From a virus (taxonomy: Duplodnaviria; Heunggongvirae; Uroviricota; Caudoviricetes), in IMG/VR virus record IMGVR_UViG_2711768070_000020: 11,069 nucleotides of DNA, one strand, 5' to 3'. Position numbers and translations under genes: made by a program. This document shows, in pieces, positions 1 through 9,424 of the stretch. Position 1 is the first letter of the stretch, and each line of letters starts with the position of its first letter. The notes beneath the pieces are model-generated. The model ran no database searches. It worked only from the letters and a program-made list of their open reading frames with translations, and was not told where the DNA came from.

Positions 1-144
1 GAAATTATTTGCCGCCTTCTTGAGGTATACCCTGATAAATTAAATGATGGTGATATATCCGCATTAGCTGGCCTTCTGGCAAAACTGTCAGGAAGTGTTG
101 CGCTGTGGTTAATTGATGAGAGAGCCGAACGCTATGAAAAATAA
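1..144 (+). CDS. Possible 3' end of an upstream gene cut by the window edge; product unknown
   Basis: Frame +1 is open from base 1 to TAA at 142-144 (47 sense codons, no stop). It overlaps the ATG at 134 of the next ORF. No recognisable motif. Confidence 0.25.
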   Translation, partial: EIICRLLEVYPDKLNDGDISALAGLLAKLSGSVALWLIDERAERYEK

Positions 145-381: not shown

Positions 382-681
382 ATGAAACTTAAATATCCTG
401 GCTTAACTGACAGCGGCAAAACTCGCACTAAATTCATGCGCGGGGATATTTACCGCGACCAGTACGGCGGCACGGTAATGATTAAGGGCGTGGAGGAACG
501 GCGCGTAACCTACCATCGTGAAGGCTACGAATATGATTGCGTGATGCCTGTTTATCAGTTCCGGCGTGATTTTTCTCTGGTACAGGCAGCGCCCCGCAGT
601 AAACCAACCAGCAGGGAGAAAGCACGCGCCAATATTCAGGAAATAAAAAAGATGCTTAACGTATTCAGGGGTAAAAAATGA
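382..681 (+). CDS. Hypothetical protein (99 aa), translationally coupled to the downstream replication gene
   Basis: ORF 382..681. Its TGA (679-681) overlaps the ATG (678-680) of the next gene in an ATGA arrangement. GGGGA lies upstream of the ATG. No family recognised. Confidence 0.55.
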   Translation: MKLKYPGLTDSGKTRTKFMRGDIYRDQYGGTVMIKGVEERRVTYHREGYEYDCVMPVYQFRRDFSLVQAAPRSKPTSREKARANIQEIKKMLNVFRGKK

Positions 682-2810
682 AACTGGCACCGAACGTAAA
701 AAAACAGCCACGCGGAATAAAACACAAAGACACAGAGGTGATTATTTTCGCGGGTAGTGATGCGTGGGCACATGCAAAACAGTGGCAGGAGCAGGACGGC
801 CCCGCATCCGGCGATAATGTGCCTCCTGTGTGGCTTGGGGAGCAGCAGTTATCAGAACTGGATAAGCTGCAAATTGTGCCGGAAGGCAGAAAATCCGTGC
901 GCATATTCAGGGCCGGACATCTTGCACCAGTAATGATCAAGGCGATTGGTCAAAAGCTGGCGGCGGCTGGTGTACAGGATGCAAATTTTTATCCTGAGGG
1001 TATGCACGGTCAGAAGGTGGAGAACTGGCGCGAATATCTGGCCCGTGAGCGGCAGAATCTTTCTGATGGTCTGGTTATTGAGTTTCCGGTAAAGAAAAAA
1101 GATACCGGAAGCCATAGCGATGACGAATTAAAGCCACGCGTTGAAAGTCGCGCCGATGGTGTTTTCTGGGTAACGCCCAAAGTGGATAAGCAGTCAGGCG
1201 AAATTATCCGGCCTGAGACGTGGTTATGTTCTCCGCTTGAACTACTGGGAACGGGGACGATCGGTAAAGAGCATTACCGCGTGATGCGCTGGAAAAAAAC
1301 CGCAAACCATGAAGTCATCACAATGGCGATCCCGTGTGGTGGTATCGGCGACCGTGACGGCTGGCGGTTACTTAAAGATCACGGGCTGAACGTGACAACC
1401 AACGGCAAATACAGGGCAATCCTGGCGGACTGGATGCAGTTAAGCGGAAGCCATGAGGAATGGCAGTTAAGCACAACAACGGGCTGGCATTTTGGCGCGT
1501 ACATCATGCCGGACGGTTCGATCATTGGTGAATCTGAAAAACCGATCCTGTTTACCGGAAAAAGCGCCGCGATTAACGGTTATTCCGTGGCGGGCACGGC
1601 GGATGGCTGGCGCGACAGCGTGGCGCGGCTGGCTGGCGGTAATGCCTCAATGATACTGGGTGTGGCAACGTCACTGGCAGCGCCTTTAATTGGCCTTGTG
1701 GGTGCTGACGGCTTCGGGGTGCATCTTTTCGAACAGTCATCGGCAGGTAAGACCACCACGCAGAACATCGCATCAAGTTTATGGGGAGAGCCGGACGCGC
1801 AGCGGCTGACCTGGTACGGCACGGCGTTAGGTATTGCCAATGAGGCCGAGGCCCATAATGACGGGCTTTTACCACTGGATGAGATAGGCCAGGCCGGAAA
1901 TGCGCGGGAAGTGTCAACGTCTGCTTATACGCTGTTTAACGGTTCAGGGAAATTGCAGGGGGCGAAGGATGGCGGCAACAGGGAGATCAAACACTGGCGA
2001 ACGGTGGCAATCAGCACCGGAGAAATGGACGTTGAGACATTCCTCAAAAGTGAGGGGATAAAAGTTAAGGCGGGGCAGCTTGTCCGACTGCTTAACGTTC
2101 CGATGGAAAAAGCCACGAAATTTCACGAATACAGCAACGGTAAGGAACATGCTGACGCGTTAAAGGATGCCTGGACAGCAAATCACGGGGCGGCGGGTCG
2201 TGAGTGGGTTAAATGGCTGGCAGGCCACCAGCAGGAGGCAAAGGACACGGTAAGGGAATGCCGCGAACGGTGGCGCAACCTGATACCGGAGAGTTACGGC
2301 GAGCAGGTCCACCGCGTGGGTGAACGTTTCGCCATACTGGAGGCCGCGCTTGTGCTTTCCGGTCATGTAACTGGCTGGGTCGTGCAGGAATGCCGCGACG
2401 CGATACAGCATAACTTTAATGCCTGGGTGAAGGAGTTCGGCACGGGTAACAGGGAATTTAAACAGATGGTTGAACAGGCTGAGGCGTTTTTGTCGTCGTT
2501 TGGGTTTAGCCGCTACCTTCCGTACCCCAATACAGATGAGCGTGATTTACCGATTAAAGAGCTTGCCGGATACAGAAAAGGGAGCATTCGCAACGAAGAT
2601 GACGAGATGCGCTATTACACGTTCCCGCACGTGTTTGAGAGTGAGATAGCGAAGGGATTTAATCCGGCGCATTTTGCGCGTGCCCTGGATGCTGCCGGAA
2701 TGCTGGAGAAGGGAAGCGATCGCCGATACAAAAAAAAGGCGCTGGGCAAGATTGGGGGTAAGCAGCATGTTTTTTACGTGCTGATGTTCCAGCCTGATGA
2801 TGAAGATTAA
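678..2810 (+). CDS. Primase/helicase-type replication initiator (Pri/Rep-like, 710 aa) with a P-loop-like motif
   Basis: Long ORF with AGGGGT 6 nt upstream of the ATG. Contains a P-loop-like motif SAGKTT (nt ~1737-1760). An iteron array follows immediately, which is the characteristic rep-ori arrangement of PICI/satellite replicons. Exact family not verifiable without a search. Confidence 0.7.
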   Translation: MKLAPNVKKQPRGIKHKDTEVIIFAGSDAWAHAKQWQEQDGPASGDNVPPVWLGEQQLSELDKLQIVPEGRKSVRIFRAGHLAPVMIKAIGQKLAAAGVQDANFYPEGMHGQKVENWREYLARERQNLSDGLVIEFPVKKKDTGSHSDDELKPRVESRADGVFWVTPKVDKQSGEIIRPETWLCSPLELLGTGTIGKEHYRVMRWKKTANHEVITMAIPCGGIGDRDGWRLLKDHGLNVTTNGKYRAILADWMQLSGSHEEWQLSTTTGWHFGAYIMPDGSIIGESEKPILFTGKSAAINGYSVAGTADGWRDSVARLAGGNASMILGVATSLAAPLIGLVGADGFGVHLFEQSSAGKTTTQNIASSLWGEPDAQRLTWYGTALGIANEAEAHNDGLLPLDEIGQAGNAREVSTSAYTLFNGSGKLQGAKDGGNREIKHWRTVAISTGEMDVETFLKSEGIKVKAGQLVRLLNVPMEKATKFHEYSNGKEHADALKDAWTANHGAAGREWVKWLAGHQQEAKDTVRECRERWRNLIPESYGEQVHRVGERFAILEAALVLSGHVTGWVVQECRDAIQHNFNAWVKEFGTGNREFKQMVEQAEAFLSSFGFSRYLPYPNTDERDLPIKELAGYRKGSIRNEDDEMRYYTFPHVFESEIAKGFNPAHFARALDAAGMLEKGSDRRYKKKALGKIGGKQHVFYVLMFQPDDED

Positions 2811-2832
2811 TCCCCTGTGTGAGGAAAAAAAT

Positions 2833-3148
2833 TGCGGGTTATGCGGGTTATCCTGTGTATAAGTGTATTAAGTGTATGAATATAAAGGAAATCAATAACC
2901 CGCACGTAACCCGCAAAAGGGCATTTATAACCCGCAAAAGCACGATTATAACCCGCAGGCGAATAACTGAAGTAACACCGGACAGTCATGCGTAACCCGC
3001 AGAAAAAACCCCGTTTGCGGGTTATTTTGAGCGTTTTGCGGGTTACGTGGTGAGCAAATAATAAACAGGGTGTTTTGCAACATGCTGATATAAAAGGGTA
3101 AAAAATGGTTAGCACGCTAAGATAACCCAATAACCCGCATAACCCGCA
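2833..3148. repeat. Iteron array / putative origin of replication: 11 copies of 9-mer TAACCCGCA (both orientations), followed by an AT tract
   Basis: TGCGGGTTA at 2833-2841, 2842-2850, 3016-3024, 3037-3045; TAACCCGCA at 2896-2904, 2907-2915, 2928-2936, 2949-2957, 2993-3001, 3131-3139, 3140-3148; partial TAACCCA at 3123-3129. (TA)n tract tatatatatataaa at ~3156-3170. Non-coding on + strand. Confidence 0.8.
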
Positions 3149-3182
3149 CATGTTTCTATATATATATAAATTGAGGTGGCAA

Positions 3183-3434
3183 ATGACCAGAACACGCAGA
3201 GACAGAACAGAGCCGAAATATAAAGCGTTAGATATAACAGAGCTGGCCTTAAAGGTGGCAATCAGAACGATAGACCGACACGTAGGGGAAGGATACGCGA
3301 AGGAACATCCCGACCTGATAAGCGCATTCATGACCACAGCAGCGGCAAACTTTGCCACGTTGACAGAACGGGAGATTGCCGAAGCGGAACAGGTAACAAC
3401 CATCAACGTTAAAACCGGAGAGTTGAAATCATGA
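3183..3434 (+). CDS. Hypothetical protein (83 aa)
   Basis: ORF 3150..3434 with ATG at 3183 preceded by GAGGTGG (MTRTRRDR...). Stop overlaps the next start (ATGA at 3431-3434). No family recognised. Confidence 0.5.
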   Translation: MTRTRRDRTEPKYKALDITELALKVAIRTIDRHVGEGYAKEHPDLISAFMTTAAANFATLTEREIAEAEQVTTINVKTGELKS

Positions 3435-3736
3435 GCGAACCAAAATTTGGTGAAAAACTTTACAAGCACAACGGACGGATCACGATTCAGCAAATAAGCG
3501 CAGCTACACCAGGCTGGTGGGTTGAAACAGACGAAGGATCCTCACCCGTGGCATCATGGGCGCTTTGTGTGCTTAGTTACCCTGACCGCGATGTGTATCA
3601 GGATATTCTGCCTGTGATATCCACTGACAAAGGCATGAAACCCGTAGACATCAAAAACATGGGTTTTCAGTGCGTAATGCTCACTGAAAAAATGATGGAA
3701 GAGATGAAAAAGAATAACGCCGGATCGCTTCACTGA
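3431..3736 (+). CDS. Hypothetical protein (101 aa)
   Basis: ORF 3431..3736, coupled to the upstream ORF by an ATGA overlap. No family recognised. Confidence 0.5.
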   Translation: MSEPKFGEKLYKHNGRITIQQISAATPGWWVETDEGSSPVASWALCVLSYPDRDVYQDILPVISTDKGMKPVDIKNMGFQCVMLTEKMMEEMKKNNAGSLH

Positions 3737-3745
3737 GGTGGCAAT

Positions 3746-4156
3746 ATGACAGCACAAATTGCAGCTTACGGGCGGCTGGTGGACGACCCGCAGGTAAAAC
3801 AGACCAGCAAGGGTACACCGATGACGCTGGCGCGTATGGCGGTATCGCTGCCATGCAGCCAGGCACAGGATGGACAGGCGACGTTATGGCTATCGGTCAT
3901 CGCATTTGGTAAGCAGGCCGACTTCCTGGCTAAACATCAAAAAGGCGACGTTGCCAGCGTATCCGGCACGATGCAGGTCAGCCAGTGGACCGGACAGAAC
4001 GGGGAAACGCGGCAGGGTTATCAGGTTATTGCAGACAGCGTAATCAGTGCCCGTGCGGCACGTCCTGGTGGGAGCCGACGCAAGACCACAGGCACACAGG
4101 GTAATCAGCCACCAGCGGGAGGCGATGACCCTTACGGTGATGATATTCCGTTCTGA
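3746..4156 (+). CDS. ssb: Single-stranded DNA-binding protein (short SSB, 136 aa) with canonical C-terminal acidic tip ...DDIPF
   Basis: GAGGTGG RBS 6 nt upstream of the ATG. N-terminal OB-fold-like pattern (GRLVDDPQV..., W..VIAFGKQADFLAKHQKGDVASVSGTMQVSQWTGQNGE) parallels bacterial SSB. Gly/Pro/Gln-rich linker and terminal PYGDDIPF match the SSB C-terminal protein-interaction tail. Confidence 0.75.
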   Translation: MTAQIAAYGRLVDDPQVKQTSKGTPMTLARMAVSLPCSQAQDGQATLWLSVIAFGKQADFLAKHQKGDVASVSGTMQVSQWTGQNGETRQGYQVIADSVISARAARPGGSRRKTTGTQGNQPPAGGDDPYGDDIPF

Positions 4157-4168
4157 GGGGTGGGGACG

Positions 4169-4441
4169 ATGGTACATGACCGCATAGCGGAAGAACTGGA
4201 GGCGAAAGGCTTTTACCGGAGAGCGTCGGCGCGATGGGGTGAAGTCATGCAACTGGTGGAGACAGACAAGGAACGGCATCAGGTTACGATGCGACGGCTG
4301 GAATGTTCCAGGAAGGCACAGAGGCCACCGGAGCCGCCGGATAATTACGGAGACCTGAAAAAGGCGGTCGATCGCACTTATGCCGAAATGGGTATGGATG
4401 GTGCTGGTGATGAAATATGGCGAAATTACCAGGACAGATAA
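4169..4441 (+). CDS. Small putative transcriptional regulator, tentatively PerC-like (90 aa; alternative GTG start at 4160)
   Basis: ORF 4160..4441 with ATG at 4169. The N-terminal segment IAEELEAKGFYRRASARWGEVM resembles what I recall of the PerC/Pch family of small activators found on enterobacterial islands. Assignment is from memory only. Confidence 0.4.
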   Translation: MVHDRIAEELEAKGFYRRASARWGEVMQLVETDKERHQVTMRRLECSRKAQRPPEPPDNYGDLKKAVDRTYAEMGMDGAGDEIWRNYQDR

Positions 4442-4638: not shown

Positions 4639-4728
4639 ACGATCGGTGCGATTGCTGATTTCCTTATGAAAAACGGTTGAGTGTTTGCCGCGTCCTGGAG
4701 TTCCTTACTTAACTTCAGGACTTTTTTT

Positions 4729-5886
4729 ATGCCGAGAATAATCGAATTACGCCAGCAGAAAACCGCCATTAAAAATCAGATGCGCGACATGCTGGAGAAC
4801 GCGGAAAAAGAAAACCGCAGCCTTAACGATGCTGAGGGCGCAAAATTTGACGAATTACGCGCTAAAGCTGAATCCCTCGATAAAGACATCTCCCGCCTTG
4901 AGGCCGTTGCTGACGAAGAGCGCAGTAAACCAGGCAAAAACAGCCAGACCACTGACCCCGCCGAACTACGTCACTACATTCTGACAGGTGAAACCCGCGC
5001 ATTGAGTACAGGCGTTCCCGCTGATGGTGGTTATACCGTTATCCCCGAACTGAACACCGAAATCATGCGAATGCTGACGGATGAATCCACCATGCGCCGC
5101 ATCTGTACCGTGAAGAAAATCAGCAGCAACGAGTTTAAGCAGCTTGTTTCCGCTGGCGGTGCGACCGTTAACCACGGTGAAGAGGGTAAGGCACGCGAAC
5201 AGACCAGCACCCCGCAGATTAACGAGGTGAGCATTAAGCTGTATCCGGTCTATGCGTACCCGCGCACCACGCAGGAAATCGTGGATTTTTCCGATGTGGA
5301 CATCCTTTCATGGCTGACGGGCGAGATTGGCGACACCTTCACGGAAACCGAAGAAAGCGATCTGGTTGTGGGCGACGGTGACAAAAAAGCAAAAGGTTTT
5401 TTATCCGTACCCCGTGCAGAGAAGAACGACAAAGAGCGTGATTTTGGTACGTTGCAGGTAATTAAACCTTCCGAATCTCTGGCGTGGACATCTGCGGACC
5501 CGCTGATCGACCTGAAATTTGCATTACGTAAAAAATACCGCAAAAACGCGGTTTGGGTGGTTAACTCCACGACGGCGGCAAAACTCCAGAAGGTGAAGAA
5601 CGCGAACGGTGATTACATCTGGCGCGACCGTTTACAGGCGGGTGATCCTGATACGTTGCTGGGCCTTCCGGTCGAATATCTGGAGTTTATGCCTGATAAC
5701 GTTATTGCCCTGGGTGACTTCAAACGCGGTTACTACATTGTTGATCACGAAACAGGTGTTCGCACCAGACCGGACAACCTCACAGAGCCGGGCTTTATCA
5801 AAATTTTCACGCAGAAATATTTAGGCGGTGGCGTGGTGGATTCGAACGCTATAAAGATTCTGGAACTGCCGCAGGACGACGATTAA
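4729..5886 (+). CDS. HK97-family major capsid protein with N-terminal coiled-coil delta (scaffold-like) domain (385 aa from ATG 4729; ORF opens at GTG 4681)
   Basis: AGGA ~9 nt upstream of ATG 4729. The charged helical N-terminus (ELRQQKTAIKNQMRDMLENAEKENRSLNDAEGAKFDELRAKAESLDKDISRLEAV) followed by a ~280-aa body is typical of HK97-type MCPs that carry their own scaffold domain. Genomic context with protease and portal supports the call. Confidence 0.85.
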   Translation: MPRIIELRQQKTAIKNQMRDMLENAEKENRSLNDAEGAKFDELRAKAESLDKDISRLEAVADEERSKPGKNSQTTDPAELRHYILTGETRALSTGVPADGGYTVIPELNTEIMRMLTDESTMRRICTVKKISSNEFKQLVSAGGATVNHGEEGKAREQTSTPQINEVSIKLYPVYAYPRTTQEIVDFSDVDILSWLTGEIGDTFTETEESDLVVGDGDKKAKGFLSVPRAEKNDKERDFGTLQVIKPSESLAWTSADPLIDLKFALRKKYRKNAVWVVNSTTAAKLQKVKNANGDYIWRDRLQAGDPDTLLGLPVEYLEFMPDNVIALGDFKRGYYIVDHETGVRTRPDNLTEPGFIKIFTQKYLGGGVVDSNAIKILELPQDDD

Positions 5887-5895
5887 CAGCACACC

Positions 5896-5925
5896 GAAGG
5901 GGCTAAAAAGCCCCTTCTCTGTTTT
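5896..5925 (+). terminator. Hairpin plus U-tract immediately after the capsid gene (partial terminator/attenuator)
   Basis: GAAGGGGC (5896-5903), loop TAAAAA, GCCCCTTC (5910-5917), then TCTGTTTT, 10 nt after the capsid stop and ahead of the protease RBS. Confidence 0.55.
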
Positions 5926-5940
5926 ACAGGTGAAAAAATT

Positions 5941-6498
5941 ATGATGAGTATGGAAATCCGGTCATCGGAAATCACCACCAGCGGCAGCAACACGCTTACG
6001 GGCTACGTTGTTCGCTGGGATAACCTTTCAGAACTGCTATGGGGCGAATTTTACGAAAAATTCCAGCGGGGGGCGTTTACTGAATGGCTTGCGGTGGGTA
6101 ATGACGTTCGCGGCCTGTATGAGCATGACCACAGCATGTTACTGGGGCGCACCCGTTCCGGTACGCTGAGACTGGAAGAGGATGACACAGGGTTACGTTT
6201 TGAACTGATCCCACCGGATACCAGCACAGGGCGGGACGTTATCGAACTGGTTAAACGTGGTGACATCTCGGGCATGAGCTTTGGCTTTCGTTCCCGTAAG
6301 GATGTATGGGATACGACAGTCGATCCATGTGTGCGTACTGTACTGATAGCGGAACTGTACGAAATTACCGTGACATCCGTACCGGCTTACCCTGATTCCG
6401 GCGTGGAGCTGGCCCGCCGTTCCCTGTATGAGCAGCACCCTGAAAAAATGCCTCGTGCGGATAATCGCCGCTGGTGGGCGGATTTAGCGGGGGTGTGA
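5941..6498 (+). CDS. HK97-family prohead (head maturation) protease, S78/U35 type (185 aa)
   Basis: AGGTGA RBS 8 nt upstream of the ATG. Sequence pattern (LTGYVVRWDNLSE..., GLYEHDHSMLLGRT, ISGMSFGF, ITVTSVPAYPDS) is typical of HK97-type prohead proteases. Positioned between capsid and portal genes. Confidence 0.8.
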   Translation: MMSMEIRSSEITTSGSNTLTGYVVRWDNLSELLWGEFYEKFQRGAFTEWLAVGNDVRGLYEHDHSMLLGRTRSGTLRLEEDDTGLRFELIPPDTSTGRDVIELVKRGDISGMSFGFRSRKDVWDTTVDPCVRTVLIAELYEITVTSVPAYPDSGVELARRSLYEQHPEKMPRADNRRWWADLAGV

Positions 6499-6499
6499 T

Positions 6500-7711
6500 A
6501 TGTGGCCTTTCAGAAGAAAAAAAGAGCAGCGCAGCATGACGCTTGATGAGTTTATGGCGCTGGCTGGCACATCGAACACGGGGGCGGGTGAGTACGTATC
6601 ATCGGGGACAGCGGAATCACTGCCCGCCGTCATGAACGCCGTCACGGTCATCTCTGAGGCGGTGGCTACCATGCCGTGTTACCTGTACCTGGTACGCAAT
6701 GAGAAGGGGAAGGAGGCCCGAGAGTGGCTTGATTCTCATCCGGTCGATCACATCCTCAACGAGCGCCCGAACGCATGGCAAACCCCCTACCAGTTTAAGC
6801 GAATGATGATCCGCCACTGCCTGTTAAACGGTAATGCTTATGCGGTGATTCGGTGGGGGCGTGATGGTTTTCCGGTGGCTTTACATCCTTACCCGCCGCA
6901 GTCGGTGAACGTGGAGCAGACAGGTGAGCATAACTGGCGCTACTGCATCACTGACGCCTACACCGGAAACACCCGCAACTATTTACCGTGGGAGGTTCTC
7001 CACCTTCGTTACTCCACGGATGACGGTTTTATGGGGCGCTCACCTGTAACCATCTGCCGCGAATCGCTGGGGCTTGGGCTGGCCCAACAACGCCACGGCG
7101 CGAGCGTGATGCGTGATGGCATGATGGCGGCAGGGGTTATCACGTCAGGCGAGTGGCTGGACGGCGTGAAGGGTAAACAGGCATTAGCCGCACTGGAACG
7201 CTACAAAGGGGCCAGAAACGCCGGAAAAACGCCCATCCTTGAAGGGGGTATGAGCTATCAGCAGCTGGGCATGAGTAATCAGGATGCTGAATGGCTGGCC
7301 TCCCGTCGCTTCACCATTGAAGACATCGCCCGAATGTTCAACGTCTCGCCGATTTTTTTGCAGGAATACAGCAACAGCACCTACAGCAATTTCAGCGAGG
7401 CAAGCCGCGCATTTCTCACCATGACGATGCGCCCGTGGCTGGCGAACTTTGAGCAGCAGATAAAAAACGCCCTGCTGGTGGCCTCGCCTGTACCTGGTAT
7501 CCGGTATCAGGTGGAGTTTGACAGCGCGGACCTGTTACGGGCCACACCTGGCGAACGCTTTGCCACCTATGAACGCGGCATCAAATCCGGCGTTATGTGC
7601 CCGAACGAAGCCCGCGAACGTGAAGGGCTGTCCCCGCGTGATGGTGGTGATGAGTTCAGCCAGGCATGGAAACAGGAAGTAAAAATCAGCGAGGGAGAAA
7701 AACCGGAATGA
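6500..7711 (+). CDS. HK97-family portal protein (403 aa; possible alternative start at ATG 6536)
   Basis: ~400-aa ORF starting 2 nt after the protease stop. Size, position and pattern (NAVTVISEAVATMP..., NGNAYAVIRW, RMFNVSPIFLQEYSNSTYSNF) fit phage portal proteins. Confidence 0.8.
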   Translation: MWPFRRKKEQRSMTLDEFMALAGTSNTGAGEYVSSGTAESLPAVMNAVTVISEAVATMPCYLYLVRNEKGKEAREWLDSHPVDHILNERPNAWQTPYQFKRMMIRHCLLNGNAYAVIRWGRDGFPVALHPYPPQSVNVEQTGEHNWRYCITDAYTGNTRNYLPWEVLHLRYSTDDGFMGRSPVTICRESLGLGLAQQRHGASVMRDGMMAAGVITSGEWLDGVKGKQALAALERYKGARNAGKTPILEGGMSYQQLGMSNQDAEWLASRRFTIEDIARMFNVSPIFLQEYSNSTYSNFSEASRAFLTMTMRPWLANFEQQIKNALLVASPVPGIRYQVEFDSADLLRATPGERFATYERGIKSGVMCPNEAREREGLSPRDGGDEFSQAWKQEVKISEGEKPE

Positions 7712-9067: not shown

Positions 9068-9424
9068 ATGGCAAGACCACCGAAAGCCCCCGCCTACCTT
9101 GATGACATCGCCGTAAAGCAGTGGCGGGAAAAATCGCGCCAGCTTGCGGAACGGGGAGACCTCACCCCCGCCGACTGGAGTAATCTCGAACTGTATTGCG
9201 TCAACTACTCGATATACAGGAAAGCCGTCGCAGACCTTGCGGCACGCGGGTTCAGCATTGTTAACAGTCAGGGCGGAGAGAGCAGAAACCCCGCATTAAG
9301 CGCGAAATCCGACGCTGAAAGAGTGATGATAAAAATGGCCTCCTTGCTTGGTTTTGACCCGATAAGCCGCCGTAAAAATCCACCGGAAACAGAAGAAGAG
9401 GACGAGCTTGACCACCTGGAATAA
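9068..9424 (+). CDS. terS: Terminase small subunit, P27 family (118 aa)
   Basis: MARPPKAPAYLDD...W...LAERGDLTPADWSNLELYCVNYSIYRKA...SAKSDAERVMIKMASLLGFDPISRRK follows the characteristic P27-family TerS pattern. Directly upstream of terL. Confidence 0.85.
   Translation: MARPPKAPAYLDDIAVKQWREKSRQLAERGDLTPADWSNLELYCVNYSIYRKAVADLAARGFSIVNSQGGESRNPALSAKSDAERVMIKMASLLGFDPISRRKNPPETEEEDELDHLE

Follow-up and report, generated by a model that had tools for sequence, protein, structure and literature searches.

An array of 9-bp iterons behind rep as the probable replication origin of the EcCIEDL933/Sakai Sp7 family of phage-inducible chromosomal islands that form capsids

Where does a capsid-forming phage-inducible chromosomal island (cf-PICI) begin to replicate, and what marks the site? 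The question is raised by an intergenic gap in IMG/VR virus record IMGVR_UViG_2711768070_000020 (Caudoviricetes), the whole 11,069-bp stretch of which is referred to here as the window. In this gap, which follows rep, a gene for a protein of 710 amino acids (aa), a single 9-bp word, TAACCCGCA, is repeated many times; an earlier reading of the letters by a model (the original prediction) had placed an iteron-type origin there and had taken the 710-aa protein for its cognate initiator. The window can be assigned by its sequence to the EcCIEDL933/Sakai Sp7 family, the prototype of cf-PICIs, as it is a capsid-forming element with 99.5-100% identity over the query to the Sakai Sp7/EDL933 element of E. 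coli O157 (in a megablast search of complete E. coli genomes, several O157 strains matched the window at 100% and EDL933 and Sakai at 99.5%). EcCIEDL933 replicates upon induction; the paper describing it and a 2025 sequel report that replication and leave the origin, iterons and primase unmentioned (10.1101/2022.09.08.507074). Positions 2833-3172 are proposed here as the vegetative replication origin of this family, with the upstream rep encoding a self-loading initiator-helicase of the DUF927/MCM-like type, a reading to which a probability of roughly 0.85 is given. Such an origin has the layout expected of a PICI and, while previously undescribed in the cf-PICI papers, is not a new kind of system.

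The repeat array and its conservation

Eleven exact copies of TAACCCGCA lie at 2833-3148, spanning 316 bp; a pattern search found zero elsewhere in the window and, with one mismatch allowed, no extra site in its whole length. The copies start at 2833 and 2842 (minus strand), at 2896, 2907, 2928, 2949 and 2993 (plus), at 3016 and 3037 (minus), and at 3131 and 3140 (plus), giving the orientation order - - + + + + + - - + +. Dinucleotide shuffles, again with one mismatch allowed, contained a mean of 2.9 matches, none of 200 reaching 11, and in unrelated DNA of E. coli CFT073 (80 kb) a single copy of the word was found; in the searchable literature it occurs in unrelated primer sequences only. The original prediction, which had counted 11 exact copies at 2820-3175 and described them as two inverted, five direct, two inverted and two direct plus a partial copy, was exact on both points. 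The partial copy is TAACCCAAT (3123-3131), which keeps 6 of 9 bases; as the related element L002 (strain CH4784) has TAACCCGCT, an 8/9 match, at the same position, TAACCCAAT appears to be a decayed twelfth site. The predicted spacing of 2-40 bp did not hold, the gaps between copies ranging from 0 to 85 bp, nor is the spacing irregular as had been thought: the start-to-start distances (9, 54, 11, 21, 21, 44, 23, 21, 94, 9) follow a grammar kept in dozens of relatives. Site 1 begins 22 bp past the rep stop codon (2808-2810), that is, the candidate origin is directly downstream of rep.

Conservation within the gap is concentrated on the word. L002 is ~83% identical to the window in this region and has a different, lambda-like capsid module. 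In the intergenic alignment of the two, iteron positions are identical at 99 of 99 and the others at 211 of 279 (24% differ; Fisher p = 1.2e-10), a contrast that is the signature of purifying selection on the 9-mer word only. This comparison also bears on the idea that the gap is protein-coding, with an open reading frame (ORF) of 228 aa on the minus strand (2807-3493) and one of 58 aa on the plus strand (2819-2995), the former being open across the whole gap in both the window and Sakai. Placement of the repeats inside a conserved coding region had been named by the original prediction as a finding that would count against it; in L002 every frame is interrupted within the gap (the longest open one spans 240 of its 378 bp), conservation falls in 9-mer blocks with 1-3 bp indels between them rather than with codon periodicity, and RefSeq has no annotation there, which leaves a coding explanation with a negligible probability.

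The spacing grammar was drawn from a Rep-alignment scan, with one genome per species, in which 80 Enterobacterales loci were fetched and 78 analysed (Rep identity 44-74%); an array was defined as at least four copies of a 9-mer within 450 bp past the Rep stop. Arrays were present in 67 of the 78 loci and, together with the window and three E. coli relatives, make up a set of 71 loci with at least 16 different 9-mer words, the commonest being TGAACCAAC and others including TGAGACAAC, TGGGACAA(C/G), TAACCCAC, TAACCCGT, TGAACCGAC, TGAACCACG, TGACACACT and TGGTACAAC. Whatever the word, the orientations are variants of '--(-)+++++--+++', and the start-to-start spacing runs 9, (9), 50-75, 11, 21, 21, ~43, 23, 21, 42-94, 9, 9. 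In nearly all loci the distance from the Rep stop to the first site is 21-30 bp, reaching +82 in a few; the left cluster of the relatives consists of two or three sites at 9-bp spacing starting 22-30 bp past that stop, the 11/21/21 spacing is kept across iteron words, and a terminal '+++' cluster at 8-9 bp spacing is found in most full arrays. The array in the window fits this grammar exactly, minus one lost site. The predicted location of an iteron origin directly 3' of rep thus gains support from the selective conservation of the 9-mer and from the same grammar recurring behind ~70 Rep homologues.

In the chromosome of Symbiopectobacterium purcellii MEX, two elements, L067 and L085, have near-identical Reps; the L067 array is a hybrid with TGAAACCCAT sites on the left and TGAAACYAC on the right, while L085 has TGAAACYAC throughout. 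The hybrid could be an origin partway through a change, or else a product of recombination.

The Rep protein and the pairing of initiator with word

By homology, Rep is a helicase of the kind found as Rep in the pathogenicity islands of Staphylococcus aureus (SaPIs) and as Cch in SCCmec, with a predicted hexameric form and predicted activity. Its core (aa 171-438) matches Pfam DUF927 above cut-off (E 1.4e-48). The best PDB sequence match by phmmer is 8tch, 'Pathogenicity island protein' (E 2.5e-12, in the core region), a code for which a literature search found no paper, and the next is SCCmec Cch, 5dgk (E 2.5e-3); the sole NCBIfam match is SCCmec Cch1 (E 3e-10, 39 bits vs a cut-off of 700), so that the similarity to Cch is weak on either measure. 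Rep also matches phrog_1139 'DNA primase' (E 8e-191), the first ~163 positions of which are missing from it, and most Rep homologues outside Escherichia are ~920 aa long with N-terminal Zn_Ribbon_Prim and Toprim_3 primase domains.

The part of Rep that varies with the iteron word is its C-terminus. Identity over Rep aa 606-710 separates same-word from different-word locus pairs with an area under the curve (AUC) of 0.947, the core reaching 0.770 and the N-mid region (aa 150-230) 0.752, and in windows slid along Rep the AUC increases from ~0.75 to a value of 0.96 over aa 670-709; the pairs are related by phylogeny and hence not independent, and the contrast between Rep regions, not the absolute AUC, is the meaningful control. 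The columns that tell most about the word concentrate in aa 681-700, where the window has the basic sequence RRYKKKALGKIGGKQHVFYVL; the three TAACCC classes have this stretch in common, and it differs in other classes. By analogy with the SaPIbov1-type Rep, the C-terminal domain is probably a winged helix whose basic stretch at aa 681-700 would contact the bases.

A natural exchange of the two partners is visible between an E. albertii locus, L007, and two E. coli loci, L003 and L004. The word of L007, TGGGACAA (L007-type DNA TGGGACAAC), differs from that of L003; the Rep core of L007 is 95% identical to those of L003/L004 and its C-terminal domain just 32%. At the DNA level, identity between L003 and L007 is ~92% up to a point 360 bp ahead of the rep stop, ~45% through the rest of rep and the array, and ~90% beyond, a drop which implies that the last ~120 codons and the iterons move as one cassette.

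On a larger scale, the initiator family is replaced along with the repeats. In the same slot, L005 carries a RepA/AAA_25 helicase with AAAGTGGG repeats, and L006 and EcCICFT073 (L088) carry a D5_N/DUF5906/Pox_D5 primase-helicase with TCTACC repeats. Comparison of the window with EcCICFT073 gives 88-93% identity for DUF4222, Rep aa 1-140, the downstream ORF, SSB and PerC, whereas the two are unrelated between window positions 1100 and 3236; given that the flanking genes are alike and the repeats unrelated, the nature of the repeats is not set by the flanking genes. The first ~125-150 aa of Rep (window 678-1100), which match phrog_2850 and phrog_864, share 82% identity with the N-terminus of the D5-type primase-helicase of EcCICFT073 and 68% with the N-terminus of the L005 helicase. 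As the three proteins are unrelated beyond this shared part, a common N-domain appears to have been fused to three alternative helicase modules; in an AlphaFold2 model of full-length Rep (12-sequence alignment, pLDDT 47), aa 1-130 alone are confident, with a beta-alpha repeat fold. Repeats that are replaced with the initiator family, word/C-terminus covariation, the natural swap and the SaPI Rep/Cch homology together support the predicted role of the 710-aa protein as the cognate initiator.

These exchanges also help to weigh whether the array might instead consist of operator or activator sites for a transcription factor (e.g., AlpA, PerC or the DUF4222 protein) controlling the downstream SSB/packaging operon, with TATATA as the promoter. 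The array does lie just ahead of a unidirectional gene string, and its tail looks like a -10 element and precedes by ~12 bp the Shine-Dalgarno sequence of the 83-aa gene that follows (GAGGTGG, 3173-3179). Nevertheless, it is the initiator, rather than the flanking genes, with which the repeats change; the same downstream gene, ~92% identical in elements having other initiators and other repeats, occurs in L005 and L006 without a TATATA tail; a promoter scan of 2600-3400 returned zero sigma-70-like sites; and the -35 position would sit inside variable iterons. Across relatives, the tail motif (~TTTTGnTTATATATAnAAAAA) comes after the last cluster irrespective of the iteron word, and homology to L005/L006 restarts at 3174/3180, just past the tail, which marks the tail as part of the rep-ori cassette rather than as the promoter of the downstream gene. 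Regulator sites are therefore an improbable explanation of the array, and a dual role, in which Rep binding also represses read-through, is possible.

A further alternative, a packaging recognition site (cos/pac) for the small terminase of the element, has in its favor that short-repeat arrays are often bound by small terminases and that cf-PICIs package their own DNA specifically. It is weakened by the occurrence of the same iterons with two packaging modules, HK97-type capsid, protease and portal in the window, L003 and L004 and lambda-like capsid plus decoration protein in L002, and by the position of the array, which is 6 kb from terS and is coupled both physically and evolutionarily to the Rep C-terminus; a packaging site is thus very improbable, more so than regulator sites.

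Origin layout, proposed mechanism and related systems

In PICIs, origins lie directly 3' of rep and have iterons on both sides of an AT-rich region, in opposite orientations and with at least two per side (PMC9371898). This layout is matched by sites 1-2 (-), 45 bp of 73% AT and sites 3-7 (+), and again by sites 8-9 (-), a spacer and sites 10-12 (+); the iteron number, 11 exact plus one decayed, fits the 6-12 of the PICI/SaPI type, and the word has 9 bp, not 5-6 bp.

Of the AT-rich elements, spacer 1 (2851-2895) is likely the best candidate for the melting site, the conserved TATATA tail (3153-3172) being the alternative. The AT tract at the end of the array, as originally predicted, is real and its motif is conserved across relatives; the most AT-rich segment is nonetheless spacer 1 and not the terminal tract, the GC minimum of the region being 0.225 at 2860-2899. 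Over the 71 loci, spacer 1 has a mean AT content of 0.79 vs 0.62 for the whole array, is found in full and short arrays alike, and has lengths that group at 42-45, 52-55 and 61-66 bp, the groups being about one helical turn apart; a spacer alignment revealed a word-independent motif near its right end, the window version of which is TGAATATAAAGG (2877-2888). Spacer 2 varies among relatives in both length (start-to-start 42-94 bp, in groups of 42-43, 50-54, 75-77, 85-86 and 94) and AT content (0.26-0.87).

Two smaller candidates within spacer 1 were set aside. The AT-rich triple repeat AAGTGTAT noted by the original prediction at 2855-2878 consists of two exact TAAGTGTAT copies (2860-2868 and 2869-2877) and a third that is degenerate, and it was rejected as a functional element since L002 and L004 do not keep it. 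On the minus strand, TGTGTATAA (2854-2862) fits the DnaA-box consensus TTATNCACA, and L004 has a perfect box, TGTGGATAA, in the same place; within spacer 1, TTWTNCACA is matched in the four E. coli TAACCCGCA loci alone among the 71 (0.6 expected by chance overall), and the box was rejected as a family feature. Involvement of host DnaA, if any, would be class-specific. In the tail, the (TA)n run (window 3157-3169 vs L001 9457-9467) exceeds that of Sakai by 2 bp, a difference suggestive of slippage as a source of length variation in this conserved element.

The convergent pair formed by sites 7 and 8 invites another reading, in which the region would serve mainly to terminate rep transcription or to form some other RNA structure, the repeats being incidental hairpin arms. 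The two sites can make up a 9-bp stem, with TTTT next to it; 2985-3050 folds as RNA with an energy of -28.3 kcal/mol (z = -3.8), and L002 keeps every base of the loop between the sites. All full arrays have such a convergent pair, the loop measuring 14-17 nt, but the T-run is not conserved, being missing from most of the other iteron classes in which the pair is kept; moreover, just 2-3 of the 12 sites would be involved, and direct repeats at 11 and 21 bp make no sense as RNA structure. A terminator scan of 2600-3400 was empty on the plus strand, with terminator-like matches on the minus strand only, and Rfam gave no significant match (only a chance-level CRISPR-DR, E 0.84, outside the array). 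A mainly terminating function is on this evidence about as improbable as regulator sites, and a secondary terminator role of the hairpin, in the TAACCC classes only, is possible.

For the origin proposed here, a mechanism can be outlined by analogy with the SaPIbov1-type Rep, from which we infer binding, melting, the opening of an AT-rich segment, stoichiometry and origin activity. Induction by a helper phage would lead to expression of rep, and Rep hexamers would bind the 9-bp TAACCCGCA sites via flexible C-terminal domains. The sites would provide a fixed scaffold of 12, the two outer clusters being oppositely oriented with sites 9 bp apart and the inner sites being phased by 11 or 21 bp. 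Site groups of opposite orientation would then place helicases on either side of an AT-rich segment, most likely the 45-bp spacer 1 or, alternatively, the TATATA tail; the segment would melt, and the helicase would load itself there.

The closest parallels are the Rep-ori systems of SaPIbov1 and SaPI2, in which the Reps (MCM-like, SF6) are self-loading initiator-helicases whose C-terminal winged-helix domain binds 6-12 iterons right after rep; the Cch-like Rep branch is the SaPIbov1/Rep2 type (Ubeda et al. 2007 and 2012, summarised in PMC9371898). Both these systems and the window have an ori directly 3' of rep with 6-12 short iterons opposed around an AT segment, and in both the initiator is also the putative helicase, specificity is assigned to the C-terminal domain and the protein has DUF927/8tch homology. 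They differ in that the iterons are 9 bp in the window and 5-6 bp in the SaPIs, in the Gram-negative host, and in the 12-site scaffold of the window with two AT-rich spacers plus an AT tail, as opposed to one central AT region; in addition, the proteins are only distantly similar (~49 bits over the core), the window has no separate pri gene, and its winged helix is only predicted.

Among E. coli PICIs, iteron sets around an AT-rich region 3' of the initiator gene have been described, and the rep-ori of EcCICFT073 replicates a plasmid, an ability that is lost when the ori is deleted (Fillol-Salom et al. 2018, PMC6092414). EcCICFT073 shares with the window the roxA-phoQ attachment region, the order DUF4222, initiator, repeat gap, small ORF, SSB and PerC, the first ~140 aa of the initiator and the placement of repeats in the same gap, but it has the SF3 helicase (D5_N/DUF5906/Pox_D5) and TCTACC repeats where the window has DUF927 and TAACCCGCA. 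SCCmec Cch (PDB 5dgk; Mir-Sanchis et al. 2016, cited in PMC9371898) shares the DUF927 MCM-like ATPase core, and HTH_56, the Cch helix-turn-helix domain, is the only Pfam model touching the Rep C-terminus, below threshold. The wider comparisons are as follows. To our knowledge, no iteron origin has been defined for SCCmec Cch. The alpha protein of satellite P4 is a multifunctional enterobacterial primase-helicase of the D5/SF3 type whose C-terminal domain binds short 8-bp repeats in both orientations, and P4 needs two separated repeat regions, ori and crr; it has in common with the candidate origin of the window the satellite setting, the short two-orientation repeats and a C-terminal reader, in the window a putative one. 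Work on P4 is cited in PMC6092414 (refs 41-43). Iteron plasmids (F, R6K, pPS10, RK2) have repeated initiator sites beside an AT-rich unwinding element and incompatibility-type specificity. Their iterons, however, are direct repeats of 17-22 bp, and their Rep is a winged-helix dimer/monomer without helicase activity, melting and unwinding being left to host DnaA and DnaB. The window departs from the classical iteron plasmid origin (RepA/pi/TrfA) in its 9-bp word, in the use of both orientations and in an initiator with a helicase core.

Several points weigh against the proposed origin and initiator. The 710-aa Rep is without the Zn-ribbon and a recognisable Toprim domain of its ~920-aa relatives, so that its ability to prime is in doubt. 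The HTH_56 ('Cch helix-turn-helix') match at the Rep C-terminus falls below cut-off (E 7e-4, 23.9 vs 26.2 bits) and is likewise sub-threshold in 14 of 68 C-terminal domains; a C-terminal-domain profile matched no PDB sequence at E <= 10; and AlphaFold models are of low confidence for the C-terminal domain (44 sequences, pLDDT 52) as for full-length Rep. The non-independence of the locus pairs, noted above, tempers the covariation. More than 16 loci, including E. coli L003 and L004, have the left module only ('--+++' or '---+++'), with SSB or other genes right after it, and the need for all 12 sites is thus in question; in L003/L004, homology to the window stops near 2958 with SSB directly after, the arrays lying at 2912-3121 in L003 and 2915-3150 in L004. 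Because the validated ori of EcCICFT073 has an initiator of a different family, its validation does not transfer directly; no ori is mapped in the cf-PICI papers; and the choice between the AT-rich elements as the one that melts is not decidable from sequence.

A broader proposal is more tentative and is held at somewhat less than even odds: that the DUF927 Rep family of Enterobacterales satellites uses one fixed 12-site scaffold (oppositely oriented outer clusters at 9 bp, inner sites at 11/21 bp, spacers changing by whole helical turns), on which only the 9-bp word and a basic C-terminal 'wing' of ~20 residues diversify, giving at least 16 mutually orthogonal initiator/origin pairs that are swapped as a cassette of C-terminal domain plus array. 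If so, the fixed scaffold with its word/wing pairs would constitute a natural recognition code for a self-loading MCM-like helicase, and the pairs would let co-resident satellites avoid replication cross-talk; in Escherichia sp. MOD1-EC7003, for example, the words of two co-resident elements, L016 and L020, differ. Most deserving of further work is this constant scaffold on which word/wing pairs may be exchanged. The accepted view of how PICIs replicate is unchanged, yet a probable origin and initiator-specificity module, neither of which is mentioned in the cf-PICI papers, can now be located for the prototype cf-PICI family of E. coli O157, with exact coordinates usable for minimal replicons, ori-deletion controls and specificity-swap chimeras, and the natural pairs of C-terminal domain and 9-mer on a constant scaffold offer material for studying how self-loading MCM-like helicases may recognize and open an origin.

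Genomic setting of the candidate origin

The features of the candidate origin and of its surroundings are collected below.

Table 1. Coordinates of the array, its spacers and the neighboring genes in the window
Feature	Position	Strand	Remarks
DUF4222	382-681		Pfam
rep, 710-aa putative initiator-helicase	678..2810	+	DUF927; N-terminal part aa 1 to ~140, MCM-like core, C-terminal part aa ~590-710
Codons for Rep C-terminal domain (aa ~590-710)	2445..2807	+	candidate iteron-reading module
Sites 1-2, left outer cluster	2833..2850	-	abutting; read TGCGGGTTA twice on + strand
Spacer 1	2851..2895		45 bp, 73% AT; between oppositely oriented iterons
Sites 3-7, five direct iterons	2896..3001	+	spacing +11, +21, +21, +44
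Convergent pair, site 7 (+) and site 8 (-)	2993..3024		14-nt loop; potential hairpin or cruciform; TTTT next
Sites 8-9	3016..3045	-	inverted, 21-bp spacing
Spacer 2	3046..3122		62% AT; between inner inverted pair and right outer cluster
Sites 10-12, right outer cluster	3123..3148	+	apparently decayed TAACCCAAT plus exact copies at 3131 and 3140
AT-rich tail TTTCTATATATATATAAATT	3153..3172		right edge of replicon cassette
First post-origin gene, 83 aa	3183..3434	+	phrog_1231, function not assigned; outside cassette
101-aa ORF	3431-3736		phrog_27268, function not assigned; between first post-origin gene and SSB
SSB	3746-4156		Pfam
PerC-family regulator	4160-4441		Pfam; pchE in Sakai annotation; three genes past origin
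HK97-type capsid, prohead protease and portal	4681-7711		Pfam
Capsid	4681-5886
Protease	5941-6498
Portal	6500-7711
terS	9068-9424
terL	from 9408 onward

Cf-PICIs of the EcCIEDL933 type are islands of ~15 kb with an integrase, a replication module, an HK97-type capsid, protease, portal, adaptor and terS/terL, and without tail or lysis genes. The genes in the window agree with the definition of a cf-PICI (its own set of capsid, protease, portal, terS and terL), and the integrase lies outside it. The Sakai copy is annotated as 'prophage Sp7; untypable' and sits between roxA and phoQ. The regulator that follows SSB here is of the PerC family, and PerC homologues encoded by PICIs have been reported to affect expression of the locus of enterocyte effacement (LEE) (PMC6092414, discussion). 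Lastly, the 101-aa ORF between the first post-origin gene and SSB is absent both in the Sakai/EDL933 copy and in EcCICFT073, which points to an insertion/deletion polymorphism within the family.

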